64,000 bases of DNA from Candidatus Omnitrophota bacterium (GTDB lineage Bacteria; Omnitrophota; Gorgyraeia; B26-G9), in contig JBDRJV010000037.1 of the NCBI GenBank assembly GCA_043814605.1, positions 31,899 through 95,898 on the forward strand, in the 5' to 3' direction. The notes under the pieces were generated by a model. The model searched no databases and had not been told where the DNA came from. It saw only the letters and a program-made list of their open reading frames with translations. A program made the translations under genes and the position numbers. Below are positions 10,782 through 51,757 of this stretch, in pieces (within the stretch, counting starts at the first letter, position 1; every line of letters begins with the position of its first letter).

Positions 10782-10786
10782 AAAAA

Positions 10787-14826: not shown

Positions 14827-14832
14827 TAAAAA

Positions 14833-18968: not shown

Positions 18969-18987
18969 TTTTAACTGGGGTGGTCCA

Positions 18988-20805: not shown

Positions 20806-20817
20806 ACACTTTTCATT

Positions 20818-22284: not shown

Positions 22285-22286
22285 TT

Positions 22287-23339: not shown

Positions 23340-23387
23340 CTTTTATTTGCAAAAGTAATAAAATTTATTTTTAAGGAGATTTTAGCT

Positions 23388-24746: not shown

Positions 24747-24752
24747 AGTTAT

Positions 24753-26135: not shown

Positions 26136-26144
26136 GAATAGAAT

Positions 26145-28855: not shown

Positions 28856-28859
28856 GAAT

Positions 28860-31851: not shown

Positions 31852-31865
31852 AAAGAGGAAAACTA

Positions 31866-32933: not shown

Positions 32934-33895
32934 ATATAAAATATGATTTTAGAAATGAACGGGAAAAGAATTTTCCTTTGATGCTTAATTTGGAAATAAC
33001 TAATATCTGTAATTATCAATGTATACATTGTCCTTATCCAAGTATTTCTCAAAGAAAAGATTATACCCCTAAGTTTATGTCCTGGGAAATTTTTAAGAAA
33101 ATAGCTGATCAAACTGCTAATTATCCTGAGACAATTTTTAGATTTGTTTGTGATGGGGAACCAATGATGCACCCAGATTTTTTAAGAATGGTTGAATATG
33201 TTAAAAACTTAAAAATCAGTCCGGTTTGTTTTACTACTAACGGATATTTTTTAACCCCGGAGGTTTCTCGTAAAATAGTTGAATTTGGTTGTGACCTTAT
33301 CGAAATAAGTTTAGATGCTTTTTCAGAGTATAGTTATAATAAAATCCGCCGGGGTGGAAATTATCATAAAGTTATTGATAACCTTAATTATCTTATCCAG
33401 TCAAAAAATGAACTATCTGCAAAGAGTTCAAAGATTATGGTTAGTATTATAGATCAGCCTTTAGTTAAAAATGAGATAACTACATTTAAGAATTTTTGGC
33501 AGGATAAGGTAGATTATGTGATTACAAGAGTATTAACGAGTGCGGGCGGGTTTATTAAGGAATCTATTCGAGATAATAAAACTGATGTGGAAATACGATG
33601 GCCTTGTCCTTTATTATGGCGGAGATTGTTTATTAATGTAGATGGTTGGGCTGAATATTGTGTGGATGATTGGTTAGATCAATCGATTTTAGGTGATGTA
33701 AATAAAGAGAGTATTGCCTCTATCTGGGGAGGCCAAAAATATCGAGATTTAAGAAAAAATCACATAAATAATAATTTTAGTTACAATGAAAAGTGTGCAC
33801 AATGTCAGGATTGGAGAGCCAGAACCTGGGAAAATGATTATTTTCATGCAATAGAGAGGATTTTTAATTTAAATTTTAAAAATGAGAATTATTGA
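32930..33895 (+). CDS. Radical SAM / SPASM-domain protein
   Basis: EITNICNYQCIHCP (CxxxCxxC). A downstream Cys-rich region (CPLLW...C...CAQCQ) is consistent with SPASM/twitch clusters. Confidence 0.75.
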   Translation: MNIKYDFRNEREKNFPLMLNLEITNICNYQCIHCPYPSISQRKDYTPKFMSWEIFKKIADQTANYPETIFRFVCDGEPMMHPDFLRMVEYVKNLKISPVCFTTNGYFLTPEVSRKIVEFGCDLIEISLDAFSEYSYNKIRRGGNYHKVIDNLNYLIQSKNELSAKSSKIMVSIIDQPLVKNEITTFKNFWQDKVDYVITRVLTSAGGFIKESIRDNKTDVEIRWPCPLLWRRLFINVDGWAEYCVDDWLDQSILGDVNKESIASIWGGQKYRDLRKNHINNNFSYNEKCAQCQDWRARTWENDYFHAIERIFNLNFKNENY

Positions 33896-35222
33896 TAGTA
33901 CAAAAAGCTTATGTCCGGTTTGTTTACAATGGATTGATTCTGCGGTAGTTACAAAAGATGACCATAAAGTATATTTAGAAAAAAAATGTCCGGAACATAA
34001 AGGAAGTTTGGTGTTTCTTTCTCCGGATGCAGAAGGATTTATTGTTTTAAGAGATTTCTACTTTCAAACTCATCAAAAAATATTTCCCCAAACTCGCTAC
34101 CTTTGTTTTTTAACCCCTAAGTGCAACCTTTCTTGTCCAATTTGTTTTTTGGATTCAGGAATGCAGGATAAAGAAGATATTAATAGGAAAGACTTAGTTA
34201 GGTTTTTGAATAATGGCAAAAAAGAAATAATTATTTTTGGAGCAGAGCCAACTTGCCGTAAAGATATTTTTGAAATAATCAGTTTTCTTAAAAAAAAGCA
34301 GCATTCGGTGAGTCTATACACTAATGGGATAAAATTAGTTGATTATAAATATGCGGAGAAGATTAAGCAAACAAAAGTAAACAAAATATATTTTCAATTT
34401 GATGGTTTTGATGATTCTATTTATGAGGTTTTACGTAAAGTAAAGCTCAAAGATCTCAAGATTAAGGCATTAGATAATTTAAAAAAAATTAATATGCCTG
34501 TGGTTTTAGATGTTGCCTTAGCCAGAGATGTTAATATTAACCAAATGGGATCTATTTTTGAATACGCTCTGAATAACAATTTTATTAAAACAATAAACTA
34601 TATCGCTTATGTGCGTTCTGGTGGAGGAGGAAAATATCTAGCGAATCAAGCAATTATGCCGGATGAATTAATAGACGAAATAAGTAAAGCTACAAAAATG
34701 AGAATAAACAGAGTTAATATGAGAATTTTTCAGAAGTTATTATATGTGTATATGTCAACTTTAAAGAAAAGAACATGTTTTTATATTAAATATTTTTGGG
34801 TTTTCCGCACAGAAAATAACCAGTATTTAACATTTGATCAAATAATTAATTTTGATATGCTAGAAAAAATATTAAATAAGTATGTATTATTAGTAAAAAA
34901 ACAAAATCAGATAATTGCTAGTATGTATTTAGTACTGAAACTTCCTTTTTTACTTTTTTCTATAAAAAACAATAAAGCTTTTTTTCAAATGCTGAAAATG
35001 ATTTTTTCGCATGTTTTTAATCGGGGAGATTATTCTTGCGTTAGGGGTGAGTTTTTACAACTAATATTTACTACTGCCTGTGATGTGGATAAGGCAGATT
35101 TGAAGATTTCGCAGCGTTGTCATGTGGGCATGATGTATAAAAATAAACAAGAAAAATTAGAAGTTTTTAATGAAAATGGTATGTATTTATTAAATCAGGA
35201 AATTCAGAAGAAAGGTGTTTAG
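33882..35222 (+). CDS. Zinc-ribbon-fused radical SAM enzyme (paralog 6 of 6, divergent)
   Basis: CPVC...CPEHKG, CNLSCPIC, FGAEPTCRKDI, YTNGIKL. Confidence 0.75.
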   Translation: MRIIDSTKSLCPVCLQWIDSAVVTKDDHKVYLEKKCPEHKGSLVFLSPDAEGFIVLRDFYFQTHQKIFPQTRYLCFLTPKCNLSCPICFLDSGMQDKEDINRKDLVRFLNNGKKEIIIFGAEPTCRKDIFEIISFLKKKQHSVSLYTNGIKLVDYKYAEKIKQTKVNKIYFQFDGFDDSIYEVLRKVKLKDLKIKALDNLKKINMPVVLDVALARDVNINQMGSIFEYALNNNFIKTINYIAYVRSGGGGKYLANQAIMPDELIDEISKATKMRINRVNMRIFQKLLYVYMSTLKKRTCFYIKYFWVFRTENNQYLTFDQIINFDMLEKILNKYVLLVKKQNQIIASMYLVLKLPFLLFSIKNNKAFFQMLKMIFSHVFNRGDYSCVRGEFLQLIFTTACDVDKADLKISQRCHVGMMYKNKQEKLEVFNENGMYLLNQEIQKKGV

Positions 35223-35227
35223 CTAAA

Positions 35228-36715
35228 ATGCGGATTGGATTTATTTATTCTGAAATGGAAACACTGGGTATCCAATATTTATCTAGTTTTTTAAAACAAA
35301 ATGGATATACAACCAAGCTTTTTTTTGATCCGCAATTATTTGCAGATACAATTTCTCAGAGCAAGTCTTTAAACAAGGTCTTTGACTATAAAAAACAATT
35401 ATTCAAGCAGATAGAAGCATTTAAGCCGGATTTTTTAGCATTTTCTGTTTTAAGTACTAACTACCATTGGGCATTTAAATTTACAAAAGAAATAAAAGCA
35501 AGGTTGAACATTCCTATTGTTTGGGGGGGGGTTCATCCTACTTTAGACCCGGAATCTGTTTTAAAACTTGATTGTGTGGATTATATAATAGCGGGAGAAG
35601 CAGAAGAAGCATTGCTTGAGTTTGTTAATAAATTTAAGAATAAGAATTCTCTGAGTAAATTGAGAAATGTATATACAAAGGTTAATGGAAAAATTATAAA
35701 AAATTTATTAAGGCCATTAATAAATAATTTAGATCAATTACCTTTTCCGGATAAAGATATATTTTATGACATTATGCCATATTTAAAAGATCATTATACA
35801 ATTGTAACGGGAAGAGGATGTCCGCATGCGTGTACTTTTTGTTGCAATCACAGTTTAAGGAAAATAAATGAGCAAAATAGTGGGAAAAATAATTTTTTAA
35901 GACGTAGATCAGCAGACAATGTGGTTACTGAATTAAAGCAAGCTAAAGAAAAATATCATATCAAAGATGTTTTTTTTGAGGATAGTACTTTTACTTACGA
36001 TAAAAAGTGGTTGAAGGAATTTGCAATCTTGTACCATGATTCAATTAATTTGAATTGCTTTTGCTGGGTTCATCCGGCTGAAATTGATGAGGAAGTAGTA
36101 GGATACTTAAGATTAATGAATTGCCGTGCTGTTGAAATGGGAGTAGAAAGTATAAACTCAGAGATTAGGGCCAAATGGTTAGGGCGTAACTATCCCAATG
36201 AGAAGATTGAAAACGCATTAAAATTATTAAAGAAAAATAAGATTTTTTGCATCACAGATAATATTATCGGATTACCCGAAGAAGAAATAAAAGATTTAGA
36301 AAATTTAGTAGATTTTTATAATAAATTACGGCCTGAAAAAATTTATATATTTGAACTAAGAATGTTTCCAAATACTCAGATGCATGAATTGTATCATGAT
36401 TATCAAGACAGCTTTAAAGAAAACAATGATGGATTGTCCCCGTTTACGTTATCTTCTTCACAGAACAAAATGGCGAAAAAAATTATTGTTTTAATTTTAG
36501 CGATACAATTTTTGCCTAAAAAAGTAATCAATTTTTTATTAAAAAATAAGTTATACAAGTTTTTCCCCGCTATAAATTTATATAATCTTTTAGAAATTAC
36601 GCCTTTTTTCTTGAATTTATTCAAAAGAGAAAAACTTTGGTTTCCCATTCGCGGAACAAGAAAAAGGTATTTATTTTTTGCTAAAAAGATGATTATAAAT
36701 TTTATTAAACGTTAA
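35228..36715 (+). CDS. B12-binding-domain radical SAM protein (paralog subfamily 'LGIEYLSA')
   Basis: LGIQYLSSFLKQNGY, TGRGCPHACTFCCN, C-terminal IQFLPKKVINFLLKNKLY. Confidence 0.8.
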   Translation: MRIGFIYSEMETLGIQYLSSFLKQNGYTTKLFFDPQLFADTISQSKSLNKVFDYKKQLFKQIEAFKPDFLAFSVLSTNYHWAFKFTKEIKARLNIPIVWGGVHPTLDPESVLKLDCVDYIIAGEAEEALLEFVNKFKNKNSLSKLRNVYTKVNGKIIKNLLRPLINNLDQLPFPDKDIFYDIMPYLKDHYTIVTGRGCPHACTFCCNHSLRKINEQNSGKNNFLRRRSADNVVTELKQAKEKYHIKDVFFEDSTFTYDKKWLKEFAILYHDSINLNCFCWVHPAEIDEEVVGYLRLMNCRAVEMGVESINSEIRAKWLGRNYPNEKIENALKLLKKNKIFCITDNIIGLPEEEIKDLENLVDFYNKLRPEKIYIFELRMFPNTQMHELYHDYQDSFKENNDGLSPFTLSSSQNKMAKKIIVLILAIQFLPKKVINFLLKNKLYKFFPAINLYNLLEITPFFLNLFKREKLWFPIRGTRKRYLFFAKKMIINFIKR

Positions 36716-36738
36716 GTAGTGATCAGTAAGGATAAATA

Positions 36739-38199
36739 ATGAAAGTTGCTTTTATTAGCTGCTCTAATGAAAGTTTAGGGATCGAATATTTATCAGCGTA
36801 TTTAAAACAGCAGGGACATAAAACTAGAGTTTTTATTGATCCCCAATTATTTAATGATGAACATTTAGATGTTCCTTTGGCTGCAAAAATTTTTAGTTAC
36901 CAAAAAAACCTAGTGAAAAAGGTCATTGATTATAATCCGGATTTAATCGGATTTTCTGTAGTTAGCGATTTTTATCATTGGGCTTGTGATTTAGCCCGAG
37001 AATTTAAAAAACATCTAAATGTACCGATAATTTTTGGCGGTATCCATGCGAGTTCTGTCCCGGAAGAAGTGATTAAAAATAAATTTGTAGATATGGTTTG
37101 CATTGGTGAAGGGGAAGAAGCTTTAGCTGAGGTTGTTAATCGATTAGAAAATAGACAAAATCCGGTTGATGTTTTGAATGTTTGGGCAAAAAAAGATGGC
37201 AATATTATTAAAAATAAATTACGACCATTGATAAATGATTTAGATCATATCCCTTATCCAGATAAGAAAATATATTATGATACAAGCTTTCATTTTCAAA
37301 TAGGTTATTATACAATAGCCAGCCGAGGTTGTCTTTATACTTGTACATATTGTCATCACTCATTTTTGAGAACAATTTATCCTCATTCTGATTATTATCG
37401 TGTTCGTAGTGTAGGCAATATCATAGAAGAATTATCCATTAATTTTGATAAAAAAAAACATAAAGTTATCCGTTTTTCCGATGATATTTTCCCTTTTAAA
37501 GAAGAGTGGTTAAAGGAATTTGCAGATAAATTTAAGGCGCGTATAAATGCTCCGTTTATTTGTTATATTCATCCGGACACTATTAATCCAGAAAATATTG
37601 ATTTATTAAAAAAAAGCGGATGCGTGGAAGTACAATTAGGAATCCAGACTCTCTATGAGCAGACTCAGAAAAAAATACTAAACAGAAATATTTCTCAAAA
37701 AAGATGGCAGGAAGTATTTTTATTGCTTTATAATGCAAACATTAAAATTACAGCAGAAAATATATTAGGTATTCCCAATCAGGAAATTTGTGAAATTGAA
37801 GATTTAATTAGGTTTTACTGTTATAATAAAGCTGATCGAATTCAGGTTTTTTGGCTTAAATTTTATCCTAAAACAAAAATTAAAGAGTTTATTAACCAAA
37901 TTGACAAAAATACGCAAGTGGATAACTCAAATAAAGAGAAAACTTTTACACAAGGCGGTGATATTTTTACAAAGGAACTTGCCAAATTAAGAATTATTTT
38001 TTGTTTATTGCATTTTCTGCCCCCTAAAGTAATTGAATGGCTGCTTGCTAATAAAAGATATCAATCTTGTTTTTTAATCCCTTTATGGATTTTAAATTTA
38101 ATATCGAATTTTACGAGTAAAGTTGCTTCTGATAAAATCACACGCAAAAGGGAGTGGATGAAATACTTAATCTTTGTCCAGAGAAGGTTTATTCGGTAA
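36739..38199 (+). CDS. B12-binding-domain radical SAM protein (paralog subfamily 'LGIEYLSA')
   Basis: LGIEYLSAYLKQQGH, ASRGCLYTCTYCHH, C-terminal LHFLPPKVIEWLLANKRY. Confidence 0.8.
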   Translation: MKVAFISCSNESLGIEYLSAYLKQQGHKTRVFIDPQLFNDEHLDVPLAAKIFSYQKNLVKKVIDYNPDLIGFSVVSDFYHWACDLAREFKKHLNVPIIFGGIHASSVPEEVIKNKFVDMVCIGEGEEALAEVVNRLENRQNPVDVLNVWAKKDGNIIKNKLRPLINDLDHIPYPDKKIYYDTSFHFQIGYYTIASRGCLYTCTYCHHSFLRTIYPHSDYYRVRSVGNIIEELSINFDKKKHKVIRFSDDIFPFKEEWLKEFADKFKARINAPFICYIHPDTINPENIDLLKKSGCVEVQLGIQTLYEQTQKKILNRNISQKRWQEVFLLLYNANIKITAENILGIPNQEICEIEDLIRFYCYNKADRIQVFWLKFYPKTKIKEFINQIDKNTQVDNSNKEKTFTQGGDIFTKELAKLRIIFCLLHFLPPKVIEWLLANKRYQSCFLIPLWILNLISNFTSKVASDKITRKREWMKYLIFVQRRFIR

Positions 38200-38918
38200 T
38201 GGTAGTTGATGAAATATCTTTAATTGTCCCTGTTTATAATGAGCAGGAATTAATTCAAGAAACAGTAGAAATATTTTTAACAGATTTATCAAATATCTGT
38301 AAAAATTATGAATTGATTATAGTTGATGATGCGAGCACAGATGAGACAGCAGAGATTTTAAAGAATCTGAAATCTAAATATCAACACCGGTTAATAGTTA
38401 TTACAAATGAGAAAAATATAGGTGGTGGCCGGAGTTTAATTAAGGGCTTTCACGCGGCTAGATATTCGCTTGTGGCAACAAACTTTGCGGATAGGCCATT
38501 TAATTTATTAGAACTTAAAAATATATTACCAAAATTTTTAAAGAATATTGATTTTATCGTTGTGGTCCGTAAAAATAGGTCCGCTAACAGTGTTTACCGT
38601 AAAATTACTTCTCTGATTAATTATTATTTAATTCGGCTGCTTTTTAATATAAAAGTTAAGGATTTCCAATTTGTCCAGATTTATAAAAGAGAAATATTAC
38701 AATCGATAAGCGTAGATTCCCACAGAACTTTTGTGCCCCCGGAAATTATTATTAGGCTGCTTTTGAATAATTACATTATGGATGAATATGAAGCCGATTT
38801 TTATCCGAGGACAAAAGGGATGGCTAAGTGCGGAAATCCGCGGATAATTTTAAGGGCAATTTATGATATGTTTTCTTTCTGGGTAAATTTAAATTTATTG
38901 AAAAAATATAGGGATTAA
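38199..38918 (+). CDS. GT2 polyprenyl-phosphate glycosyltransferase (ArnC / DPM1-like)
   Basis: The first ATG after the upstream stop is at 38199 (TAATG overlap). SLIVPVYNEQELIQ...ELIIVDDASTDETAEIL and the following region match DPM1/ArnC-type GT2 enzymes, which charge polyprenyl-phosphate with a sugar. Confidence 0.65.
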   Translation: MVVDEISLIVPVYNEQELIQETVEIFLTDLSNICKNYELIIVDDASTDETAEILKNLKSKYQHRLIVITNEKNIGGGRSLIKGFHAARYSLVATNFADRPFNLLELKNILPKFLKNIDFIVVVRKNRSANSVYRKITSLINYYLIRLLFNIKVKDFQFVQIYKREILQSISVDSHRTFVPPEIIIRLLLNNYIMDEYEADFYPRTKGMAKCGNPRIILRAIYDMFSFWVNLNLLKKYRD

Positions 38919-38924
38919 AGAATC

Positions 38925-40139
38925 ATGCAGGCTAATCATAAATTAAAACCAGCTATTGCAGGGGGGAAACCCGTAAGGAAAAAAATGCTGCCTTTGCATC
39001 AATCTGATTTTTCTCAAGCAGAAGAAAAAGCGGTAATAAAAGTTTTGCGCTCGGGATGGCTGACTAAGGGGCCGCAAACAAAAACACTCGAAGAAAAATT
39101 TACTAAATTTGTTAAAGCCAAATATGCTATTGGGACAAATTCTGGGACAAGTGCATTACATCTTGCTTTGAGTTGTTTAGATTTAAAAAAAGGTGATGAG
39201 ATTATAGTTTCTCCGCTGACTTTTGTCTCTGCGATTAATTCAATTATTCATTGTAATTGCAAACCTGTATTTGTTGATGTTGATCCCCTAACTTTAAATA
39301 TTGATCCCGAGCAGATTGAATCTAAAATCAATATGAGAACTAAATGTATAATGCCCGTACATTTATATGGACAAGCATGTGTGATGAATAAAATTTTAAG
39401 AATAGCTAAAAAAAATAAAATATTTGTAATCAGTGATGCGGCGCATGCTTTAGAAACAGTATATAACCGGAAAAAAATCGGCTCGATCGGGGATATCACT
39501 TGTTTTAGTTTTCATCCGGCTAAAAATATTACTTCTGGGGAAGGAGGAATGCTGGTAACAAATAATAAAAAGTTTGCACAAAAAGCTCAAATGTTAAGTT
39601 TGCATGGTATAGATAAAAGTACTTGGACCAGATACACTCAAGATAGATTTCAGCATTGGACAACAATCGCGCCGGGGTTTAAATATCACATGACTGATCT
39701 GCAAGCTGCAATTGGTTTAGCCCAATTAGAAAAAATCAAAAAATTTTGGCAAAAAAGAAAAAAATACACAAAAATGTATTTATCTGCTTTTAAAGATATT
39801 CCTCAAATAAGAGTGATTACAAAAATGTCATCACTAAAAAATAAAAATGCATATCATTTATTCATAATACAAATAGATACAAAAATGTTAAAAATTAATA
39901 GAGACTATATTTTAAATGCACTACTAGCTGAAAATATTGGGGTAGGGGTTCATTATCGTGCAATTCATTTACACAGTTTTTATAAGAACCATTTTAGTTT
40001 TAAAAAAGGAATGCTGCCTCAGGCTGAGTATGCAGCAGAGAGAATAATTACTTTACCCTTATATCCAAAAATGAAACAAAGTGATATTAGTGATGTTATT
40101 GATGCAGTGAGCAAGGTTATAACCTATTATAAAAAGTAG
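38925..40139 (+). CDS. DegT/DnrJ/EryC1/StrS-family PLP-dependent sugar aminotransferase
   Basis: SDAAHALETVYNRKKIGSIGDITCFSFHPAKNITSGEGGMLV (an SFHxxK PLP-lysine motif) and DLQAAIGLAQLEKI. Confidence 0.85.
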   Translation: MQANHKLKPAIAGGKPVRKKMLPLHQSDFSQAEEKAVIKVLRSGWLTKGPQTKTLEEKFTKFVKAKYAIGTNSGTSALHLALSCLDLKKGDEIIVSPLTFVSAINSIIHCNCKPVFVDVDPLTLNIDPEQIESKINMRTKCIMPVHLYGQACVMNKILRIAKKNKIFVISDAAHALETVYNRKKIGSIGDITCFSFHPAKNITSGEGGMLVTNNKKFAQKAQMLSLHGIDKSTWTRYTQDRFQHWTTIAPGFKYHMTDLQAAIGLAQLEKIKKFWQKRKKYTKMYLSAFKDIPQIRVITKMSSLKNKNAYHLFIIQIDTKMLKINRDYILNALLAENIGVGVHYRAIHLHSFYKNHFSFKKGMLPQAEYAAERIITLPLYPKMKQSDISDVIDAVSKVITYYKK

Positions 40140-40166
40140 TTATTAAATTGTTGCATATTTATAAGT

Positions 40167-41591
40167 ATGATGAAAAAAAGAATATTATTGATAAATCCAA
40201 ATTATACTTACTTTCCCGGTTGGTTATCAACGGCGGTTAATTATAAAGGCCTGTCTTTAGGACTAGCTTATATTGCGGGATTTTTAAGAAAACAGAATAA
40301 TGTCAAGGTGCGGATTTTTGATGCAGTTATTTTAAATGCTACAATTAAAGATATCATTTTAGATATAAAAAAATTCAATCCGGATATTATAGGGATTACG
40401 ACAACGACAATTACAATAAATGGTGCCAGACAAATTGCTCAAGCAGCAAAAAAAATATTAAAAGATATTATTATTGTTTTGGGAGGGCCACATGTTAGTG
40501 CGTTACCTTTTGAGAATTTAGATGTTGCAAATTTTTGTGTAATAGGTGAAGGAGAAGTTACCTTTTCAGAATTAGTTACTGAGATTAATAATCAGAAAGC
40601 TTGGGATAATATAAAAGGGATTTCATTTAAAAAAAATGGAGAATTTGTAAAAACTCCATCACGTAATTTAATCGAAAATCTAGATTGTTTACCATTTCCG
40701 GCTAGAGATTTGTTACCTGAACATAAATTTATGCATATTTATCCTTATAGGTTAAATAATCCATATTATGAAAATTTAGTAACTTCTCGAGGATGTAACT
40801 TTAATTGTAATTTTTGCTTAAATGATTTAATGTGGCAAAAAAGAACGAGATATCGTAGTTTGAATAGTGTTTTTGAAGAAATAGATATCTTGGTAAAAAA
40901 TAAAAATACTTCGGTTTTGTTTTTTCAGGATGATAACTTTACATCGAACTTTGACAGGATTTATGAATTTTGCACAAAAAAAAGAATATATTTTCCAGAT
41001 TTAAAATGGATTTGTCATGCTCGGGTTGATTTTTTAACTTTGCCATTATTAAAAGAAATGGAGTCGGCCGGTTGTGTTGAGATTCAATTAGGCGTTGAAA
41101 GCGGTGAAAATAGCATACTGTCTGATTCTAATAAATCGTTTAAGAAAGAAAGCATCATAAAAGCGTTTAATTTTATAAGAAAAACTAAAATTAACAGCTG
41201 GGCAACAGTTATTATTGGGCATGAAAATGATACTAAGGCAACAGTTGAAGAAACAATTAAGTTTGTTAAAGCTATTGATCCAACTTATTGTACTTTTTTA
41301 TTTCTATCCCCTTTACCAGGGACAAAAACGTTTGCTGATTTTTCAAAAAAAAGATTTATTAAAACTTATGATTGGGATAAATATGGCTGGCATGGAGAGC
41401 CGGTTTTTGAAACTCATTTATTAAATAGAAAAATGTTGTTGAAATTAAGAAGGAAAGCTTACTGTGATTTCTATATTCGACCGAAAAATTTTTTAAAGTA
41501 TTTTCACATTCTATTTTATCGTAAGCAATTTAGTACAATTATAAATAATCTTCTAATCATGATCAAATTTATATTTAGCCCAGTAAAATAA
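40167..41591 (+). CDS. B12-binding-domain radical SAM protein
   Basis: N-terminal B12-binding-like domain (ILLINPNYTYFPGW...IIGITTTT), then VTSRGCNFNCNFCLN (CxxxCxxC). Confidence 0.75.
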   Translation: MMKKRILLINPNYTYFPGWLSTAVNYKGLSLGLAYIAGFLRKQNNVKVRIFDAVILNATIKDIILDIKKFNPDIIGITTTTITINGARQIAQAAKKILKDIIIVLGGPHVSALPFENLDVANFCVIGEGEVTFSELVTEINNQKAWDNIKGISFKKNGEFVKTPSRNLIENLDCLPFPARDLLPEHKFMHIYPYRLNNPYYENLVTSRGCNFNCNFCLNDLMWQKRTRYRSLNSVFEEIDILVKNKNTSVLFFQDDNFTSNFDRIYEFCTKKRIYFPDLKWICHARVDFLTLPLLKEMESAGCVEIQLGVESGENSILSDSNKSFKKESIIKAFNFIRKTKINSWATVIIGHENDTKATVEETIKFVKAIDPTYCTFLFLSPLPGTKTFADFSKKRFIKTYDWDKYGWHGEPVFETHLLNRKMLLKLRRKAYCDFYIRPKNFLKYFHILFYRKQFSTIINNLLIMIKFIFSPVK

Positions 41592-41972
41592 TAAAAAAAT
41601 AATATCGTATAAAGCGATACTTATTAATTTTACCGCTAAAATTTTTCTACTATTGGTTAGAGGACTAATTATATTACTGTTGTTTCCAAAGAGAAAGATA
41701 GTATTGTAGATATTACTGGTTTATAAAATGATTCGAAAAAAATAACTAATCGATTAAGCTTAATAAAATGTAATTTTAATTATTTTAAAGGACTAACTAT
41801 TAGTTGATTGATAAGGTTGTTACGAATACCGAGACTAATATAATAAGCGATTTAAATTAATCGCCATGTCCTGTAGAAGGTATAATTAGTTTACGTAATT
41901 ATAATAATGTTGTGGTGAATTTTCAAGAAAATATTTTTCAATTAATATATACAATTCGGCGAGAGGATCTAG

Positions 41973-43166
41973 ATGTCTATTTCGAGAAGAAATTTTTTAA
42001 AAAATAGTTTAAAATTTTGTGCAGGAGTTGGATTATGCATCTTAACAAAAAGTTTCTGGGATAATTTTGAAAATACAGAAAGGATAGACAATTTTTTATT
42101 AAAAGAAGCAAAATATTATCGTAAAGGAAGTAACAATACTGTGCAATGCTTATTATGTGCCAGAAATTGTGTAATTAAGGATAAAAAAAGAGGGTTTTGC
42201 CAAGCCAGGATAAATAGTAAAGGTAAATTATTTAGTATGGTATACGGAAGTGTGATTATAACCCATTCAAAGGATAGACCGTTTAGGTCTTTGATTTATT
42301 TTGCTAATGATATTGAAGGGCTATGTATTGGTACAGCTGGATGTAATATGAGATGCAAGTTTTGTCTTGCCTCAGGAATTAGTCAGGTAAAACCTGAAGA
42401 TATTAAGATTAATAATAGATTTCCTTTTACTATGAATAAGAAACAAAATAAGACTCAGATTCTTCCAGATCAATTGATAAGCATGGCCAAAAAAAACAAT
42501 GTAAAATTAATTCATTTTAATCTTAATGAACCTACAATATATTATGAGTATATGCTAGATGTGGCAAAAATAGCGGTAAAAAATGGAATTTTTACAATGC
42601 TATGGAGCAATGCATATATAAATAGGGACCCTTTGCTTGAGTTAGCTCCTTATTTAGGCGGAGCGAGCATTGGATTGAAAGCTTTTAACAATGATATCTA
42701 TAAAAAGTTTTGCAGCGGAGAATTAAGTCCGGTTTTAGATACTTTAAAGTTGCTGAAAAAACAAAAAATTCCTTTTGAGATAATTTATCCAGTCATTCCG
42801 ACTGTTAATGATGATACTCAACAAATTAAAGATATGTGTTTTTGGATTAAAGATAAATTGGGTACGGAAGTGCCATTGCATTTTTATCGTTTCCTGCCTA
42901 GGTATAAATTAGTTAATTATCCTCCAACCCCTATCTCAACCTTGGAATCCATACAGAGTTTGGCTAAAAATACTGGTCTAAAATATGTATATGTTTTCTA
43001 TATGGGAGATTATCCTATCCCGGGCATGGAAGAAAAAATTTATTGTCCAAATTGTAAGAAATTAGTTTTATTACGTAAAAATTTAAATAATCTTGTAATA
43101 AATAATACGAAAAATTCCTGTTGTAAATTTTGCGGTGAAAAATTACTTTTTTTTATTTTTAAATAA
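41973..43166 (+). CDS. AmmeMemoRadiSam-system-type / PflA-like radical SAM enzyme with N-terminal twin-arginine-like leader
   Basis: ATG with GAGAGGA 7 nt upstream. The N-terminus SRRNFLKNSLKFCAGVGLCIL matches the Tat consensus. CLLCARNCVIKDKKRGFCQARINSKGKLFSMVYG followed by GTAGCNMRCKFCLASGIS matches the characteristic N-terminal half of AmmeMemoRadiSam/PFL-activase-type rSAMs. Confidence 0.7.
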   Translation: MSISRRNFLKNSLKFCAGVGLCILTKSFWDNFENTERIDNFLLKEAKYYRKGSNNTVQCLLCARNCVIKDKKRGFCQARINSKGKLFSMVYGSVIITHSKDRPFRSLIYFANDIEGLCIGTAGCNMRCKFCLASGISQVKPEDIKINNRFPFTMNKKQNKTQILPDQLISMAKKNNVKLIHFNLNEPTIYYEYMLDVAKIAVKNGIFTMLWSNAYINRDPLLELAPYLGGASIGLKAFNNDIYKKFCSGELSPVLDTLKLLKKQKIPFEIIYPVIPTVNDDTQQIKDMCFWIKDKLGTEVPLHFYRFLPRYKLVNYPPTPISTLESIQSLAKNTGLKYVYVFYMGDYPIPGMEEKIYCPNCKKLVLLRKNLNNLVINNTKNSCCKFCGEKLLFFIFK

Positions 43167-43234
43167 TCTAAATTATGGGAAAAATTTATTACTTAATACG
43201 ATTAAATAAAAAATTGAAAATTTATTAAAAATAT

Positions 43235-44644
43235 ATGAGAGTTCAATTTATTTTTCCGCCTTATACGCATAAAAAATTTGAAGAGGACATTTCAATTGTC
43301 AGCCGTAGATTTGGTATTTTCCCGCCGTTAGGGCTTGCATTTGCGGCGGCTATTTTAGAGGCACAGGGACATTGTGTGGATATTATTGATGCGCGGGCTT
43401 CGAATCTATCAAAAGAGCAGACACTGCAAAGAATAAAATATTTTCAGCCTAAATTACTGGGATTTATGCTCACGTTTTATATGTTTCATGATACTTTAGT
43501 CTGGATTAAATTTTTTAAAGAAAAAACTAATATCCCGATTATTGTCGGTAATGTATTAATGGAGTTTTTCCCGCAGGACGTGATGGCGTATCCTGAGATT
43601 GATTATGGAATTATTGGCTCCGCGCAAAAAAATTTACCGCTACTCATAGAATTTTTGGAAAATAATAAAAATATCGAAAACATTAGTGGGCTTTGTTATC
43701 GTAAAGATGGACAAGTAATTATTAATAAACCCAAAGAATTATTTGAGGATTTTCAGACTTTGCCTTTTCCGGCAAGGCATTTATTGCCTAATCATAAGTA
43801 CCATGCGGTAATGTCAAAACGTAAAAATCTTACGATAATGGTTACAACCCGTGGATGTGCCGCTAGCTGTAATTTCTGTCATATTAAAGATATTAAATAT
43901 TCAGCTAGGTCAGCCCAGATGGTTGTGGATGAAATGCAAGAGTGTTATGAAAAATTTAATGTGCGTGAAATTGAAATATTTGATCCTACTTTCAATATGG
44001 ATAAACGCAGAGTGATGGATATTTGCCAAGGCATAGTTGATAGAAAACTGGATATTGATTGGGCTTGCCGTGCGAGAATTGATTGCATGAACCCAGAAAT
44101 GTTGAAAATTATGTGTCAGGCTGGGTGCAAAAGAATATTATACGGGATTGAATCAGGCGATGAAAATATTCTTAAAAAAATTAAGAAAGGAATAAATTTA
44201 TCACAAATTAGAGATACGATTAAAGCTACCCAAGATTTAGGAATAAAGGCATTAGGATTTTTTCTTTTAGGGAGTCCCGGAGATAGTTTAAAAACTATTA
44301 ATAAAACAGTTAAATTTGCTAAAGAATTAAAGCTTGATTATGCGCAATTTCATAAAACAATAGCAAAACCTGGAACCGAATTGTACGACCAAGTTAAGAA
44401 TTATACAGGACGCGATTTATGGAGAGAATATATTCTAGGTAAATATCCAGAATCAAGATTACCTACGCCTTGGACAGATTTATCAGCTCAAACCATAGAG
44501 CAGTGCACTTATCAAGCGTATCGAAAATTCTATTTTAGAATTGGTTACCTCTGGCAAACTCTTAGAGGAATAAAATCATTTCATGAATTTAAGAGATACC
44601 TAGCTTCTTTTTTTGGTTTAATTTTTGAAAAACGGGATTATTAA
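43235..44644 (+). CDS. B12-binding-domain radical SAM protein
   Basis: N-terminal B12-binding-like domain, then VTTRGCAASCNFCHI (CxxxCxxC). Confidence 0.75.
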   Translation: MRVQFIFPPYTHKKFEEDISIVSRRFGIFPPLGLAFAAAILEAQGHCVDIIDARASNLSKEQTLQRIKYFQPKLLGFMLTFYMFHDTLVWIKFFKEKTNIPIIVGNVLMEFFPQDVMAYPEIDYGIIGSAQKNLPLLIEFLENNKNIENISGLCYRKDGQVIINKPKELFEDFQTLPFPARHLLPNHKYHAVMSKRKNLTIMVTTRGCAASCNFCHIKDIKYSARSAQMVVDEMQECYEKFNVREIEIFDPTFNMDKRRVMDICQGIVDRKLDIDWACRARIDCMNPEMLKIMCQAGCKRILYGIESGDENILKKIKKGINLSQIRDTIKATQDLGIKALGFFLLGSPGDSLKTINKTVKFAKELKLDYAQFHKTIAKPGTELYDQVKNYTGRDLWREYILGKYPESRLPTPWTDLSAQTIEQCTYQAYRKFYFRIGYLWQTLRGIKSFHEFKRYLASFFGLIFEKRDY

Positions 44645-44659
44645 AAGGAATTAATTTAA

Positions 44660-46144
44660 ATGAAAATAATGTTTTATTATTCTGCCTTTGAAAATTTAGG
44701 CATTGAATATCTTTCTGCAGTTTTAAAACAATCCGGACATAAAACCCGCCTTCTCTTTGATCCGGGTTTATTTAACGACCCTTTTTTGAGTATTAAACCA
44801 TTGGCTAAAATTTTCAACTGGGAGAAAAAATTATTACGTGAATTTACCCAATACAATCCGGGTTTAGTAGCCTTTTCTGTGACGAGTTCAACTTATTTAG
44901 CCGCATTGGATTTTTCAAAAAAACTTAAAAAAATAACGAAAATTAAAATAGTTTTTGGCGGGATCCATGCCAGTGCAGTGCCAGAGGTTGTTATAAAGGA
45001 TGATGCAGTTGATTACTTAATTGTGGGTGAAGCAGAAGAAGCTTTATTGGAACTAGTCGAGGCATTAGAAAACAATAAACCGATTAATAGCATTAAAAAT
45101 CTGTGGTATAAAGATAGGTATAAAATCTTTAATAATTCTTTAAGAGACTATATTACTGATCTTGATAAACTTCCATTTCCAGATAAGGATCTTTATTATG
45201 ATCAAATTCCTGAATATAGAAGCGGGTATACAATAATTACCCGCCGGGGTTGTCCGAATCATTGTGCTTATTGCCATAATAGTTTATGGCATAAATTATA
45301 TAAAGATTATGACAGTGAAATTGTCCGGTACCGAGGGGTAGATAATGTAATTACAGAGTTAAAACAGGCAAAAAAAAAGTATAATTTTAAAAGGGTTCGC
45401 ATAAACGATGAAATTTTTACTCTTAATGAAGGCTGGTTAAAGGAATTCTCTGCAATGTATAAGAAATATATTAATCGGCCAATGTTCTGTTTTGTTAGTC
45501 CTCATACTGTAAACGAAAAAACTGTAGAATGTTTAAAAGCTATGAATTGTTATCAGGTTTGTATGGGTGTGCAAACTCTAAATGAAGAAAAGAATAGAAT
45601 CTTGTTAAACCGCAATCAAACTAATAATCAGGTAAAACAGGCAATTAAATTATTTCGTGAATATAAAATTCGTTGTGTTGTGGATAATATAATTGGTTTA
45701 CCTGGTGAAAAGGAAGAAGATTTATTGCAGATGGCAAGGTTTTATAATAATAACCGTCCCGATAGGATTTGTATTTTTTGGCTGATTTATTTCCCTGGGA
45801 CAAAAATTATAGATGCAGGATTAGAAAAAGAGGTGCTTAACCAAAAAATGCTAGAAGAAATTAAAACAAATCCGCAAGCTACAGCGAATACTATCTATAG
45901 TCTGTTACATGAAAGGGGCAAGAATAAGTATTATATTTTGCTTCTGCTGATACATTTTTTACCTAAAAATATTATTGATTTTATCATAAAGAAAAGATTA
46001 TTTGAATTATTTTCATTATTAAACCCCTCGTTGATTGAAATCCCTTTTACGATGATTGCTCGGGACAGATTAGATATAGTCAGACGCAGATATTATTCAC
46101 GTTATATCAAATATGGAATTAAAAAATTATTTTTAGTTGGATAA
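44660..46144 (+). CDS. B12-binding-domain radical SAM protein (paralog subfamily 'LGIEYLSA')
   Basis: LGIEYLSAVLKQSGH, ITRRGCPNHCAYCHN, C-terminal IHFLPKNIIDFIIKKRLF. Confidence 0.8.
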   Translation: MKIMFYYSAFENLGIEYLSAVLKQSGHKTRLLFDPGLFNDPFLSIKPLAKIFNWEKKLLREFTQYNPGLVAFSVTSSTYLAALDFSKKLKKITKIKIVFGGIHASAVPEVVIKDDAVDYLIVGEAEEALLELVEALENNKPINSIKNLWYKDRYKIFNNSLRDYITDLDKLPFPDKDLYYDQIPEYRSGYTIITRRGCPNHCAYCHNSLWHKLYKDYDSEIVRYRGVDNVITELKQAKKKYNFKRVRINDEIFTLNEGWLKEFSAMYKKYINRPMFCFVSPHTVNEKTVECLKAMNCYQVCMGVQTLNEEKNRILLNRNQTNNQVKQAIKLFREYKIRCVVDNIIGLPGEKEEDLLQMARFYNNNRPDRICIFWLIYFPGTKIIDAGLEKEVLNQKMLEEIKTNPQATANTIYSLLHERGKNKYYILLLLIHFLPKNIIDFIIKKRLFELFSLLNPSLIEIPFTMIARDRLDIVRRRYYSRYIKYGIKKLFLVG

Positions 46145-46177
46145 ATATTAAATTGATCAAAGTATCAGGATAAAATT

Positions 46178-47167
46178 ATGAATTCAGGATTATTGAATAT
46201 ATTAAAAATTGTTAGAATTTTTTTTAAAGTAAAATTTTTTAGAAATAAAATTCCTATTTTTGTGGGCTGGGATTTAACTTACAGGTGTAACTTTAATTGT
46301 CAATATTGTAAAATTCCGAAACTTGATACCGATCGAGAATTGTCAACGGATAAGGTGTTAAAAATGATAGATCAGTTTAGTAAACTTGGTGTTTGCCGTA
46401 TACATTTTGGTGGGGGAGAGGTTCTATTACGAGATGATCTTGATCAAATTTTAAAATTTTGTAAAAAAAGAAATATTTATACTGTTATTCTCACAAATGG
46501 AGCTTTATTTGAAGCTAAGATACCTGTTATAAAGAAAGCAAATCTAATAAAAGTAAGTTTTGATGGTCCTGCTAAAATTCATGATAATTTGCGTCATAAG
46601 GGGTCTTATAGTCAGATTGTTAAAGTATTAGTTTTAGCAAAAAAACTTAAAATAAAAGTAACGTTAAGTGCAACTTTAACTAGAAAAAATTATGAATATA
46701 TTGATTATATTTTAGATTTTGCTAAAGAAAATAGGACCCCAGTAAAATTTCAGTTAGTTAATGAGTTCTTGTCAGGATCTAAAGACATTGCTAATCTTAA
46801 GCTTTCCCGAGAGCAGCAGCAGAAGGCAATGGGAAAATTATTAAAGGAAAAAAAGAGGAGCGGGTATATAATAAATTCTAAAAATGCACTGGAGTATATG
46901 CGTGATTACCCAAATGTAAAAAATTTATGTTGTACGGCAGGAAAGCTTTATGTGCGTGTTTCTGTTGATGGAAGGCTATATCCGTGCGAAATACTAAAAG
47001 ATGAGTTTTTAAAAAATACATCTTTTGAAAAAGATATCGGTAAATCATTCAAAGTATTAAAAAATGTTAATTGTAAATATTGTTTATGTACTACAACATT
47101 AGAATTAAATCAATTATTTTCTTTAAATTTAAATGCAATTTTTAATGGGCTAAAGTATTTTAGTTAA
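46178..47167 (+). CDS. Radical SAM / SPASM-domain protein
   Basis: DLTYRCNFNCQYCK (CxxxCxxC). The C-terminus has CCTAGKLY...CE...CKYCLC, consistent with SPASM. Confidence 0.8.
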   Translation: MNSGLLNILKIVRIFFKVKFFRNKIPIFVGWDLTYRCNFNCQYCKIPKLDTDRELSTDKVLKMIDQFSKLGVCRIHFGGGEVLLRDDLDQILKFCKKRNIYTVILTNGALFEAKIPVIKKANLIKVSFDGPAKIHDNLRHKGSYSQIVKVLVLAKKLKIKVTLSATLTRKNYEYIDYILDFAKENRTPVKFQLVNEFLSGSKDIANLKLSREQQQKAMGKLLKEKKRSGYIINSKNALEYMRDYPNVKNLCCTAGKLYVRVSVDGRLYPCEILKDEFLKNTSFEKDIGKSFKVLKNVNCKYCLCTTTLELNQLFSLNLNAIFNGLKYFS

Positions 47168-47387
47168 AATTTAATATGGCTAAGAACTAATTCTATATTA
47201 AGAATTATAGAAGAACTTTTCCGTGTTATTAATAAAAAAATGGTTCGATTGTGGAAACAAAGTTTAACGTTTTTTTTCGACAATATTGCTTTTGTATTTT
47301 TAGAATTGATAAACGAATCTTCAATTAGAAATAAGAACTGTAGTTTAAAAGTAATTTTTTTATTACCAACACTATGGAGGATGAAGT

Positions 47388-48833
47388 TTGAAAATATTAC
47401 TTATAGTTGAGGAAACTTTTTATATGGATAGACTGGGCATTTTATATTTAAGTTATCCTCTAAAGCGTTTCAACTATGATGTCAAACTTGCTGTTTTTGC
47501 TAAAGAGGGGTTTCCAGGAATAGAACAAATAATGCAAGAATATTCTCCGGATATTGTTGGTTATAGTATGATGACTGGTGAGTATAATACGCTTAATAGA
47601 GTAAATAAGTATTTAAAAAATAAATTTAATTTTTTATCAGTTTTTGGAGGTCCTCACCCGACATTTTATCCGGATTTAATTAAAGAATCCCATATTGACG
47701 CAATTTGTGTAGGAGAGGGAGATATTGCTTTTGCGGAGTTTTGTCGGAGAGTTAAAGAGAGCGATAAATATTGGCAAACTCCAGGGTTTTATGTAAAGCA
47801 TAATGGTAATATTTTTAGTAATCCACTATTATCTTTAGTTAAAGATTTAGACCAATTATCTTTTCCAGATAGAAAATTAATGTATGAGGCCCAACCTGAT
47901 GTCTATGAAGATGGAACCAAAGTTTTTATATCTTCTCGTGGATGCCCTTATAGTTGTTCATATTGTTTTAATAAAAAATATAATGATATTTATAAAAATA
48001 AGTCAATTGTAGTTCGTCATCGTTCGCCTAATAATGTAATTCAGGAAATTGATGCTACTAAGCAGGAATACGGATTAAGACATGTATTTTTTTTAGATGA
48101 TATTTTTACGATAAAACCTAAGGGATGGGTAGAAGAGTTTTCAACACTATATAAGCAAAAGATTGATCTGCCGTTTTCTTGTCACGTACGTGCAAATCTG
48201 GTAAGCGATAGTGAGATAAAACTATTAAAAAATGCCGGCTTAAATTCAGTTTTAATCGGAATAGAATGTGGGGATGAGAGAGTATCAAATGAAGTGTTAA
48301 ATAGAAATTTATCGAATAAAATAATTTTTCAAGCAATACAAATTTTAAAAAAACATGATATTAAAATATGGACACATAATTTATTGGGGATCCCAGTTAA
48401 GGATAGTTTCGAAGTAGGAATTAAAACGCTTGATATGAATTTAAAAATAAGACCAGTTTATGCCCATTCAGGCTTACTTTTTCCTTATCCTGGGACTGAA
48501 ATTCGGAAGCAATCATTACGAAATAATTTTTTGAATGAAAATAGTGTTTTTTTTGAAACTCATCAAAAATATTCAGTTTTTAATTTTAATAAAAAAGAAA
48601 AATCTCAGATTGAAAGATTGCATTATTTATTTGGATTAACAGTTCGTTTTCCTTTTTTACGTAAAATAATTAGATTGCTTGTAAAAATTCCTTTATCAGG
48701 ATTTTATTTTATGATTTTTTATGTTTGGTATGGATACAATCTTAAATTTAAATTTTTTCCCATGCAGTCTTGGACAAAAGAAATAAAAAAATATGTCAAA
48801 TTAGGGGAAAAGATACTAAAAAAACATAATTAA
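47388..48833 (+). CDS. B12-binding-domain radical SAM protein
   Basis: N-terminal B12-binding-like domain, then ISSRGCPYSCSYCFN (CxxxCxxC). Confidence 0.75.
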   Translation: MKILLIVEETFYMDRLGILYLSYPLKRFNYDVKLAVFAKEGFPGIEQIMQEYSPDIVGYSMMTGEYNTLNRVNKYLKNKFNFLSVFGGPHPTFYPDLIKESHIDAICVGEGDIAFAEFCRRVKESDKYWQTPGFYVKHNGNIFSNPLLSLVKDLDQLSFPDRKLMYEAQPDVYEDGTKVFISSRGCPYSCSYCFNKKYNDIYKNKSIVVRHRSPNNVIQEIDATKQEYGLRHVFFLDDIFTIKPKGWVEEFSTLYKQKIDLPFSCHVRANLVSDSEIKLLKNAGLNSVLIGIECGDERVSNEVLNRNLSNKIIFQAIQILKKHDIKIWTHNLLGIPVKDSFEVGIKTLDMNLKIRPVYAHSGLLFPYPGTEIRKQSLRNNFLNENSVFFETHQKYSVFNFNKKEKSQIERLHYLFGLTVRFPFLRKIIRLLVKIPLSGFYFMIFYVWYGYNLKFKFFPMQSWTKEIKKYVKLGEKILKKHN

Positions 48834-49119
48834 TCAGGTATAAATAAATTTTTATTTGATTTCTATGAGTACCACAGTAAAGATTATGAAATTATTTATA
48901 AAAATATGCCTAAAATAAATTTAAATATAAACCATGTTTTATAAAAGAACTTAAAATTTTAAATAAGAAGAATCTAAATATTAAGTTAAAATATGTTACT
49001 GAGTATATTTAGACAAGAAAATTTGTTGTGATGCAACACGTTAGAAAATTAAAAAAATAGGTTTAATTTAAAATACAAAAAAGTTTTAAAATATTTTAAA
49101 AATAAAATAATTATATTTT

Positions 49120-50097
49120 ATGAATAAAACTGTAAGCGTTCTGATTACCTCTAAGGAAAATAAATCTGAACAACTGAAGCATTTGCTGCATAGCTTGGTG
49201 GTTCAGGATATTCGATACCTAAGAATTTACTTAATTTTAGATCGCAAAAATGATCTATTAATTAATGATATCCAAAAAATATTAAAACCAGTGGAATTTT
49301 TTTTTAATGATAACCATTGTATTACTTATATTCAAAATAAAATTATGAAAAATTTAAATAGTGAATTAATTTTGTTATTAAATGATGATATTATATTAGA
49401 AAATTATTTTATTTCTAGTTTAACTGATTCAATTGATAAGAATGAAAAAATAGGTATTTGCTGTGGGAAAATAAAGCGTATGGATAAAATAACTATTGAT
49501 AGCGCAGGGCAATTTTTAGCCCGGAGTCGAAAACCACTAGATAGGGGTTATGGTCAAAAAGATAAAGGGCAGTTTGATAGTGCAGAATATATTTTTGGAG
49601 CTTGTGGGGCAGCAGTTTTGTATCGTAAAAAAATGCTAGAAAGTATTCAAATAACTCCGGGTGAATATTTTGATAATGATTACCATCTATTTTACGAGGA
49701 TTTAGATATTGCCTGGCGGGCGCAAAACTTAGGCTGGAAGGTATTTTATGATCCAAAAGCTGTTTGCTATCATGTTCGCGGAGCTACAGTAAAACAAAAT
49801 AAACCAAAATTTAGTTTTTTAAACAATTTTAATTTTGCTTGGCTTCCGAATAGTTTGAAGGTAGATGTAATAAAAAACCGTTATATGACTATAATAAAAA
49901 ATGATAAATTAAGTAATTTTTTAATTAATTTACCTTTCATTTTATTTTATGATCTTAAAGTTTTTATTTACTGCTTATTTTTTTGCCCGATTGTCATTAA
50001 AAATTGCTTAAATAAAGTGCCTTTGATTATGAACGCTTGGAAAAAAAGAAAATATTACTACTTAAAATATGAAAAAATAAGACAGAAGGAATGCTAA
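49120..50097 (+). CDS. GT2 family glycosyltransferase
   Basis: Has a GT-A-like core with LLLNDDIIL (DxD region) and EDLDIAWRAQNLGWKVFYDPKAVCYHVRG. It is clearly paralogous to 12250..13143. Confidence 0.65.
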   Translation: MNKTVSVLITSKENKSEQLKHLLHSLVVQDIRYLRIYLILDRKNDLLINDIQKILKPVEFFFNDNHCITYIQNKIMKNLNSELILLLNDDIILENYFISSLTDSIDKNEKIGICCGKIKRMDKITIDSAGQFLARSRKPLDRGYGQKDKGQFDSAEYIFGACGAAVLYRKKMLESIQITPGEYFDNDYHLFYEDLDIAWRAQNLGWKVFYDPKAVCYHVRGATVKQNKPKFSFLNNFNFAWLPNSLKVDVIKNRYMTIIKNDKLSNFLINLPFILFYDLKVFIYCLFFCPIVIKNCLNKVPLIMNAWKKRKYYYLKYEKIRQKEC

Positions 50098-51755: not shown

Positions 51756-51757
51756 AG

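Follow-up and report, generated by a model that had tools for sequence, protein, structure and literature searches.

Here, we describe a gene for a putatively exported radical S-adenosylmethionine (SAM) enzyme on a 64,000-nucleotide stretch of contig JBDRJV010000037.1 from the Candidatus Omnitrophota assembly GCA_043814605.1; this whole stretch is the window referred to below. The coding sequence (41973..43166, + strand) is an intact open reading frame (ORF) of 397 amino acids (aa). It encodes a divergent radical SAM protein of the AmmeMemoRadiSam type with the fold of a pyruvate formate-lyase (PFL) activase, as judged from TIGR04337, PF04055 and an AF2 model, and it begins with a leader of the twin-arginine translocation (Tat) type. 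The product is identical to protein P0001 of a Candidatus Omnitrophota metagenome-assembled genome (MAG) at NCBI, where it is named as an AmmeMemoRadiSam radical SAM enzyme.

The translation start of the gene is forced. The codon abutting the ATG on its 5' side is an in-frame TAG, and the earliest alternative in-frame start is a GTG at codon 57, within the conserved domain and two residues ahead of the first family-invariant cysteine, so that the N-terminal 45 residues are translated if the domain is made. A Shine-Dalgarno sequence GAGGA (GAGG/AGGA) is located at 41963-41967, at -10/-9 from the ATG, and the intergenic region that precedes the gene (41592..41972, + strand, 381 bp) is the largest of the window. 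A preliminary description of this DNA had named the 381-bp gap as the largest in the locus, judged the ribosome-binding site to be good and the start call likely real, and our survey of gaps and start codons agrees on each point.

The leader peptide comprises aa 1-26 (MSISRRNFLKNSLKFCAGVGLCILTK; 41973..42050, + strand; TIGR01409) and lies outside the TIGR04337 match, which begins at aa 46. The twin-arginine motif S4-R5-R6-N7-F8-L9-K10 (41982..42002, + strand), as read from the sequence, is followed by a hydrophobic region (h-region) F15-T25 (FCAGVGLCILT; 42015..42047, + strand) with 11 uncharged residues between K14 and K26 and a mean Kyte-Doolittle (KD) hydropathy of 2.2. The pattern RR.F[LI]K has a single occurrence in the 20,481 aa from the 51 ORFs of the window (29.5% GC; 3.8% Arg), and the chance expectation of [ST]RR.F[LI]K in the N-termini of 51 proteins is, by our estimate, about 4e-4. 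TIGR01409 (TAT_signal_seq) matches aa 3-24 with 18.3 bits (cutoff 16.7), the syntenic ortholog P0004 with 17.3 bits and Tat-type relatives with 16.4-25.6 bits; neither of two controls, the Sec-like P0016 and the decayed leader of P0002, was matched. The consensus Tat leader proposed in the preliminary description is therefore upheld, with SRRNFLK unique among the proteins of the window and one of two curated models passed.

Positively charged c-region residues serve Sec avoidance in known Tat signals, and K26 follows the h-region as such a residue. Other Tat-type leaders of the family have 11-15 uncharged residues and then K/R, several with an A|Q site. The median uncharged stretch is 12 residues in these leaders as compared to 22 in leaders without the arginine pair. 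With 11 residues, the h-region falls short of the length of an ordinary transmembrane (TM) anchor. A second textbook Tat leader is found at the start (MKKFTRREFLQKGIGLSTAVVSGQLFNENVFA|RN; Pfam, motif) of a DUF362 protein in the same gene cluster (13140..14252, + strand), the second predicted Tat substrate of the cluster, which suggests that the organism uses Tat.

Behind the leader, aa 46-391 (42108..43145, + strand) match TIGR04337, the model of the AmmeMemoRadiSam system radical SAM enzyme, with 231.3 bits against a cutoff of 220, a marginal pass; Pfam recognised Radical_SAM (PF04055) alone. All 11 family-invariant cysteines are retained (alignment A1), and the protein shares with the TIGR04337 family the radical SAM motif CX3CX2C, the N-terminal CX2CX3C..C and the C-terminal CX2C..CX2C arrangements. 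The first of these is C124-x3-C128-x2-C131 (CNMRCKFC; 42342..42365, + strand), which is followed by LAS in place of the mainstream QNW. The N-terminal set, C59-x2-C62-x3-C66...C76 (42147..42200, + strand), is invariant in the family and may hold an auxiliary cluster or a zinc ion, and the equally invariant C-terminal pairs C358-x2-C361...C384-x2-C387 (43044..43133, + strand) are zinc-ribbon-like.

The AF2 model (pLDDT 87.8) predicts a helix over residues 5-40, and its nearest solved fold is the PFL activating enzyme (PFL-AE) 3CB8 (Foldseek E 4.9e-14, TMt 0.75). A sequence search of the PDB returned only weak matches to the radical SAM core, and the family itself has no solved structure. With PFL-AE (3CB8/3C8F; TIGR02493) the protein shares the partial TIM-barrel radical SAM core with CX3CX2C; PFL-AE, however, is cytoplasmic and leaderless, whereas the window protein has additional Cys-rich modules at both ends. 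Identity as a glycyl-radical activase was rejected (TIGR02493, 41.8 vs 231.75 bits; TIGR02494, 40.6 vs 174.35 bits), and a glycyl-radical enzyme domain was not detected in any of the Pfam-scanned ORFs of the window. These results confirm the earlier assignment to an AmmeMemoRadiSam/PFL-activase-type radical SAM enzyme. The accompanying claim that the core agrees with the family almost motif-for-motif is true of the 11 invariant cysteines but is overstated, in view of two lost motifs and an insert.

The window protein differs from the TIGR04337 mainstream by its low score, by replacement of the conserved HIDPIEKKPLFHF loop and of QNW after CX3CX2C, and by a gained insert of 17 aa (alignment A1). 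The mainstream motifs HIDPIEKKPLFHFLPG and CQNWxISQ have become HSKDRPFRSLIYFANDIEG and CLASGISQ, a divergence that is also seen in P0003, P0005, and P0007, and the seven closest relatives, P0002-P0008, show the same motif losses and insert. The subclade-specific insert itself (aa 146-162, INNRFPFTMNKKQNKTQ; 42408..42458, + strand; alignment A1) is modelled as a low-confidence loop with pLDDT <50 at 148-159. Tested members of the subclade score 231-271 bits with TIGR04337, compared to 339-389 bits for mainstream members. P0001-P0007 are monophyletic in a neighbour-joining (NJ) tree of 253 sequences and are placed inside its leader-bearing half. One further subclade member, on the contig of P0004, was recovered from 185,579 species-representative genomes. 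By sequence comparison, the window protein belongs to a rare, divergent subfamily of AmmeMemoRadiSam-type radical SAM enzymes, and, as the subclade is rare, few sequences are available to judge how far the arginine pair (RR) is conserved in it.

The window protein shares the possession of an N-terminal leader with a large branch of the family, and its closest relatives show how such leaders vary. The syntenic ortholog P0004 (46% identity, Omnitrophota) begins with TRRDFLKNGLK and continues with a weakly hydrophobic segment, AAGYVSAGVLCG (mean KD 1.4). The leader of P0002 aligns residue-for-residue with aa 4-29 of the window protein; it has RY, not RR, and an h-region with a KD of 3.2 vs 2.2. 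A more hydrophobic h-region can rescue Tat targeting in the absence of the arginine pair (Huang and Palmer 2017, PMC5539426), and the P0002 h-region resembles the hydrophobic suppressors that were described there for loss of RR. Orthologs that uniformly start downstream of the RR motif, which the preliminary description had named as the finding that would speak against the leader, were not what we found, as P0004 keeps TRRDFLKNGLK and at least 105 of the 120 closest homologs carry a leader.

Among these 120 homologs, 91 have a hydrophobic leader without RR and 14 an RR leader, and the remainder are mostly truncated gene calls. The call of P0088, for instance, begins at an internal TTG, and the in-frame sequence upstream (L009 ~5900-6000) encodes a signal peptide, MRRILSSIISVLILSSVFPLFAHSIAAQSD. 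The 'leaderless' calls of P0023, P0029, P0036, P0051, and P0080 resemble this truncation. A wider census of 134 classifiable representatives at 50% identity gave 69 leaderless sequences, 28 with an RR-type and 14 with a hydrophobic leader, 12 that were unclear, and 11 with long N-terminal extensions, several of which are fused domains by Pfam. About 40% of diverse family representatives hence carry a leader or an N-terminal fusion. In the NJ tree, the leaderless sequences separate from every leader and fusion type, and leaders of the Tat type occur in at least eight phyla (Omnitrophota, Planctomycetota, Desulfobacterota, Clostridia, Neomarinimicrobiota, Calditrichia, Aminicenantes, Bacteroidales). 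On this comparison, the leader of the window protein is part of a pattern rather than a lone oddity. The earlier view that a Tat leader would be highly unusual holds for radical SAM enzymes in general but not within the TIGR04337 family. Copies of the enzyme also occur in combination: TIGR04337-like paralogue pairs lie side by side, both with RR-containing leaders, in L054, L066, L074, L075, L085, and L087, and in L007 (3876-7125) a leaderless and a Tat-type copy have a transaldolase gene between them.

The neighbours and fusion partners of the family point outward. In a survey of 80 GTDB-representative loci (L015-L093), the radical SAM gene, with a leader in the recurrent cassette, is followed by a gene for a Memo-AMMECR1 fusion and then by one for a DsbD-like membrane protein in 26 loci; a further 12 have Memo-AMMECR1 only and 10 the DsbD-like gene only. 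RsmE and a MiaB-like gene often come after the cassette (e.g., L018 10001-13163, L003 8001-11223). The adjacent Memo-AMMECR1 protein has a signal-peptide-like N-terminus of its own in 38/40 cases, which ends ..A[QE][DE] directly before the Memo domain. A lineage of 64% GC combines a Tat leader on the radical SAM enzyme with a Sec-type signal on the Memo-AMMECR1 partner, the division expected if the cofactor-bearing and the cofactor-free component of one system are both exported. The recurrence of this cassette suggests an extracytoplasmic location of the AmmeMemoRadiSam system in many lineages.

Fusions join the same elements in one polypeptide. P0122 and P0132 consist of a signal or TM segment, an FMN_bind domain with the ApbE flavinylation motif DxxSGAT, and the radical SAM domain, with no TM segment in between, and a DsbD_2+Fer4_5 membrane protein precedes P0122 (L011 6455-9600). 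FMN_bind and a NapH-like Fer4_5 are fused to radical SAM in P0134 and P0136, DsbD_2, FMN_bind, and Fer4_5 in P0157, and DsbD_2 in P0126 and P0131. Signal peptides are combined with Memo, AMMECR1, and radical SAM in P0123, with a beta-propeller and radical SAM in P0127, and with CBM_11 and radical SAM in P0129. Loop charges of the DsbD_2-radical SAM fusions indicate an N-out/C-out topology by crude hydropathy, a call made less certain by the K/R-rich linker behind TM6. Flavinylated FMN_bind, NapH-like, and DsbD proteins serve as electron carriers to extracytosolic redox enzymes (Meheust et al. 2021, PMC8238504; the term 'radical SAM' is absent from that article), and these modules, with NapH-like corresponding to PF12801, are fused to or encoded beside relatives of the window protein. 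By analogy, the fusions and neighbours suggest that the cluster of an exported radical SAM enzyme could be reduced by a flavin domain that acts like a flavodoxin. As a separate observation, an AmmeMemoRadiSam cassette in L008 is closely followed by HxsD (PF27806) and two radical SAM genes (11341-13104), an arrangement that recalls the HXS anti-phage system, in which a radical SAM enzyme matures a periplasmic effector (PMC13128918).

The window gene itself is found in a different setting. It is part of a single-strand cluster of about 54 kb for envelope-glycan modification (837..53491, + strand; Pfam scans, synteny with L001/L014 and L005), which contains about 20 radical SAM genes: nine of the B12-binding class B, six MJ0619/HMPTM-like, two SPASM, two plain, and the gene studied here. 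Four of the six MJ0619/HMPTM-zinc-ribbon radical SAM genes stand in tandem at 23388-28855. The cluster also encodes four PMT_2 glycosyltransferases (GT) of the GT-C type, a GT2, a GT1, three DegT aminotransferases, WbqC, a polysaccharide deacetylase, and Wzy_C, and is adjoined downstream by the dcw cluster from 54531 (mraZ, mraW, ftsI, murE, murF). P0004 (L001/L014) and P0003 (L005) are encoded in clusters of the same type, with class-B radical SAM genes upstream and methyltransferase, GT2, and Wzy_C genes downstream. In L001, from another Omnitrophota MAG, Wzy_C is followed by mraZ-mraW-ftsI, a similar placement upstream of mraZ.

Whereas the AmmeMemoRadiSam system is defined by its AMMECR1 and Memo neighbourhood, the window gene has no Memo, AMMECR1, or DsbD-like gene within the 64 kb. 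A tblastn search of the window with an Omnitrophota Memo-AMMECR1 fusion gave best E values of 0.3-1.1, and PF01875 and PF01871 had no match when 50 of the 51 other window ORFs were scanned with Pfam; the remaining ORF (51758-53491, 577 aa) has no Pfam match. The preliminary description, which had noted that AMMECR1 and Memo genes are not nearby, is thus correct for the whole window. Memo and AMMECR1 were not found in the syntenic loci L014 and L005 either, and orphan status is, by synteny across the window and these two loci, a conserved property of the subclade's locus. We therefore regard the window protein as a marginal TIGR04337 member by sequence that stands, by its context and motifs, outside the AmmeMemoRadiSam 'system'.

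We propose that the leader is a functional Tat signal and that the enzyme may work at the outer face of the cytoplasmic membrane on an envelope glycan, a proposal to which we give an even chance. As part of the same joint reading, and with the same standing, the leader would have been inherited from the large leader-bearing branch of the family. Briefly, the enzyme would fold in the cytoplasm, where the radical-SAM [4Fe-4S] cluster, the metals for the two extra Cys sites, and possibly SAM would be loaded. TatBC would then recognise SRRNFLK, and the enzyme would cross the cytoplasmic membrane; as a signal-peptidase site is not evident, it would probably stay tethered by its leader to the outer face of this membrane. 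There it could perform a radical (hydrogen-abstraction) step on an exported or lipid-linked envelope glycan built by the surrounding cluster, beside the GT-C (PMT_2) and Wzy-type enzymes, which face outward, and the DUF362 protein with its predicted Tat leader. Co-export of bound SAM that is used catalytically could supply the cosubstrate, but this is only a guess. A flavodoxin-like flavin domain could explain reduction in the fused relatives, although no such module is found near the window gene.

Tat-dependent Fe-S proteins such as the Rieske protein, which keeps its uncleaved Tat signal as an anchor, offer a partial parallel. They share the twin-arginine motif and a modestly hydrophobic h-region with the window enzyme, and in both cases acquisition of the Fe-S cluster must precede transport. 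PF10399, the family of Rieske Tat signals, matches the leader of P0004 weakly and below threshold (E 0.029). Tat-dependent proteins of the Rieske kind are electron carriers, however, whereas the window protein is a SAM-dependent radical enzyme.

Several observations weigh against Tat export of the window enzyme. The Pfam model TAT_signal (PF10518) stays below its threshold (13.9 vs 22.7), the h-region is shorter than that of classic Tat signals, which have about 13 or more uncharged residues under the TATFIND rules, and inspection of the sequence after the h-region revealed no cleavage site of the AxA type. Retention of the RR leader in related genomes, which the preliminary description had looked to as a check, is only partial: P0004 keeps RR and passes TIGR01409, but just two of the six to seven subclade members (the window protein and P0004) do so, as RR is changed to RY in P0002 and to YR in P0003 and gives way to plain hydrophobic segments in P0005 and P0007. 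Most mainstream relatives in the Omnitrophota have very hydrophobic, RR-less leaders that resemble Sec signals on an Fe-S enzyme. Such leaders are hard to reconcile with Fe-S cofactor loading, and we know of no precedent for Sec export of an Fe-S protein of this kind. Genes for tatA/tatC and for DsbD-like, FMN_bind, and NapH-like proteins were not found in the window or in the syntenic loci, and the local absence of the latter three, the extracytosolic electron-transfer modules seen elsewhere in the family, leaves the window enzyme with no visible reductant route. SAM is not known to occur outside the cytoplasm. Moreover, the evidence is computational throughout.

The main alternative is that the N-terminus is a Tat-independent or vestigial-Tat membrane tether, which would hold the catalytic domain on the cytoplasmic side of the membrane beside a lipid-linked glycan intermediate. 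The RR motif would then survive as an evolutionary relic, much as NarG, a nitrate reductase that faces the cytoplasm, carries a vestigial Tat motif. Such a tether was already suggested in the preliminary description and remains a live option because RR is kept in only two of the six to seven subclade members; most members have a hydrophobic N-terminal segment, whether it is accompanied by RY, YR, or neither. SAM and reductant are at hand on the cytoplasmic face, so that the supply problem is avoided. The lack of a periplasmic reductant module nearby and the other radical SAM genes of the cluster, all of which are leaderless and presumably cytoplasmic in their products, fit this alternative as well. 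The leader itself fits it poorly. Four positive charges in the n-region precede the hydrophobic stretch and favour N-in/C-out under the positive-inside rule, an h-region of 11 residues is too short for a stable TM helix and that of P0004 (KD 1.4) too polar, and the motif shows no degeneration from the consensus and passes a curated model. Across the family, partner signal peptides, FMN_bind fusions, and DsbD-like genes point outward. We consider the tether, and with it the remnant status of the RR motif, unlikely but deserving of serious attention.

A second alternative holds that the protein is an ordinary AmmeMemoRadiSam enzyme that has the genes of its Memo and AMMECR1 partners at another genomic location, its own place in a glycan cluster being incidental. 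The TIGR04337 cutoff is passed and the NCBI name agrees, the partner search covered 64 kb of a larger contig, and Memo/AMMECR1 are likewise not nearby in 31/80 related loci. However, the score of the window protein is 110-160 bits under that of mainstream members, a deficit that extends to the whole subclade (231-271 vs 339-389 bits), the HIDPIEKKPLFHF and QNW motifs are gone, and the insert has been gained. All three subclade loci with context, moreover, place the gene among class-B radical SAM, GT2, Wzy_C, and methyltransferase genes and lack Memo/AMMECR1. We rate this alternative as improbable.

We see still less room for a cytoplasmic maturase or activase of a partner protein, in which the RR peptide would serve hitch-hiking co-export, chaperone docking, or proofreading. 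The idea draws on the PFL-activase-like fold and on radical SAM maturases of exported proteins (anSME, QhpD), all of which, as far as known to us, act before export. In these known cases, the export signal is on the substrate and not on the radical SAM enzyme, while in the window it is on the enzyme itself. A periplasmic effector system matured by a radical SAM enzyme, HXS, does exist (PMC13128918), and anSME, QhpD, and HXS all connect radical SAM chemistry with products of the envelope or periplasm, each with a cytoplasmic enzyme and a signal on the substrate. The Pfam-scanned window holds no candidate substrate with a glycyl-radical or repeat motif, and the fusions of the family join radical SAM and extracytosolic-type domains in one polypeptide; we rate this alternative as highly improbable. 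That the leader is an artefact of a wrong start codon, a pseudogene, or a chance motif is effectively refuted, as nothing beyond the general risk of low-GC MAG sequence speaks for it, the upstream in-frame stop leaves no alternative start before codon 57, at least 105/120 closest homologs have a leader, the seemingly leaderless P0088 is a truncated gene call with its signal peptide in frame upstream, and the ORF is intact with every invariant residue present.

Extended to the family, the proposal would be that a whole branch of the AmmeMemoRadiSam family and its Memo-AMMECR1 partners are extracytoplasmic by way of Tat or hydrophobic leaders and receive electrons through DsbD-like, NapH-like, or flavinylated-FMN conduits, and that the window copy has been uncoupled from these partners and recruited to tailoring of glycans after their export. 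This wider proposal we hold tentatively, at a little under an even chance. Radical SAM enzymes are assumed to be cytoplasmic, as their function depends on SAM, on an electron donor of low potential, and on Fe-S assembly. The export signals of the branch, the signal peptides of the partners, and the links to transmembrane electron conduits challenge this cytoplasm-only assumption. If the proposal is true, it would represent the first extracytoplasmic radical SAM chemistry, and the supply of the periplasm with SAM, or some mechanism that spares it, and with reducing power would call for an explanation. The Memo/AMMECR1/radical SAM system, which has long gone uncharacterised and has disease-linked relatives in eukaryotes, would receive a first clue to its localisation, and envelope glycan biosynthesis in the Omnitrophota would gain a new type of late tailoring step outside the membrane. 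In the literature we searched, an exported or periplasmic radical SAM enzyme was not found described, and the name 'AmmeMemoRadiSam' was met in passing only; the leaders may already have been noted in the original description of the Memo-AMMECR1-radical SAM systems (Burroughs et al. 2019, cited in PMC7159879).

The remaining observations concern the surroundings of the gene. The 381-bp gap upstream contains, besides the Shine-Dalgarno sequence, one sigma-70-like site (TTGTTA-16-TATAAT; 41817-41844, + strand), and a promoter and terminator scan of the gap found promoter-like sites at no more than shuffle frequency. Rfam had zero matches in the whole window, and likewise in the gap under permissive thresholds. 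The idea that the gap encodes the precursor of a ribosomally synthesised and post-translationally modified peptide (RiPP) was rejected, as it has no credible small ORF. Upstream of the gap, the class-B radical SAM ORF at 36739-38199 and the GT2 ORF at 38154-38918, which has a GTG start, overlap by 46 bp, and the start of the GT2 ORF may be miscalled.

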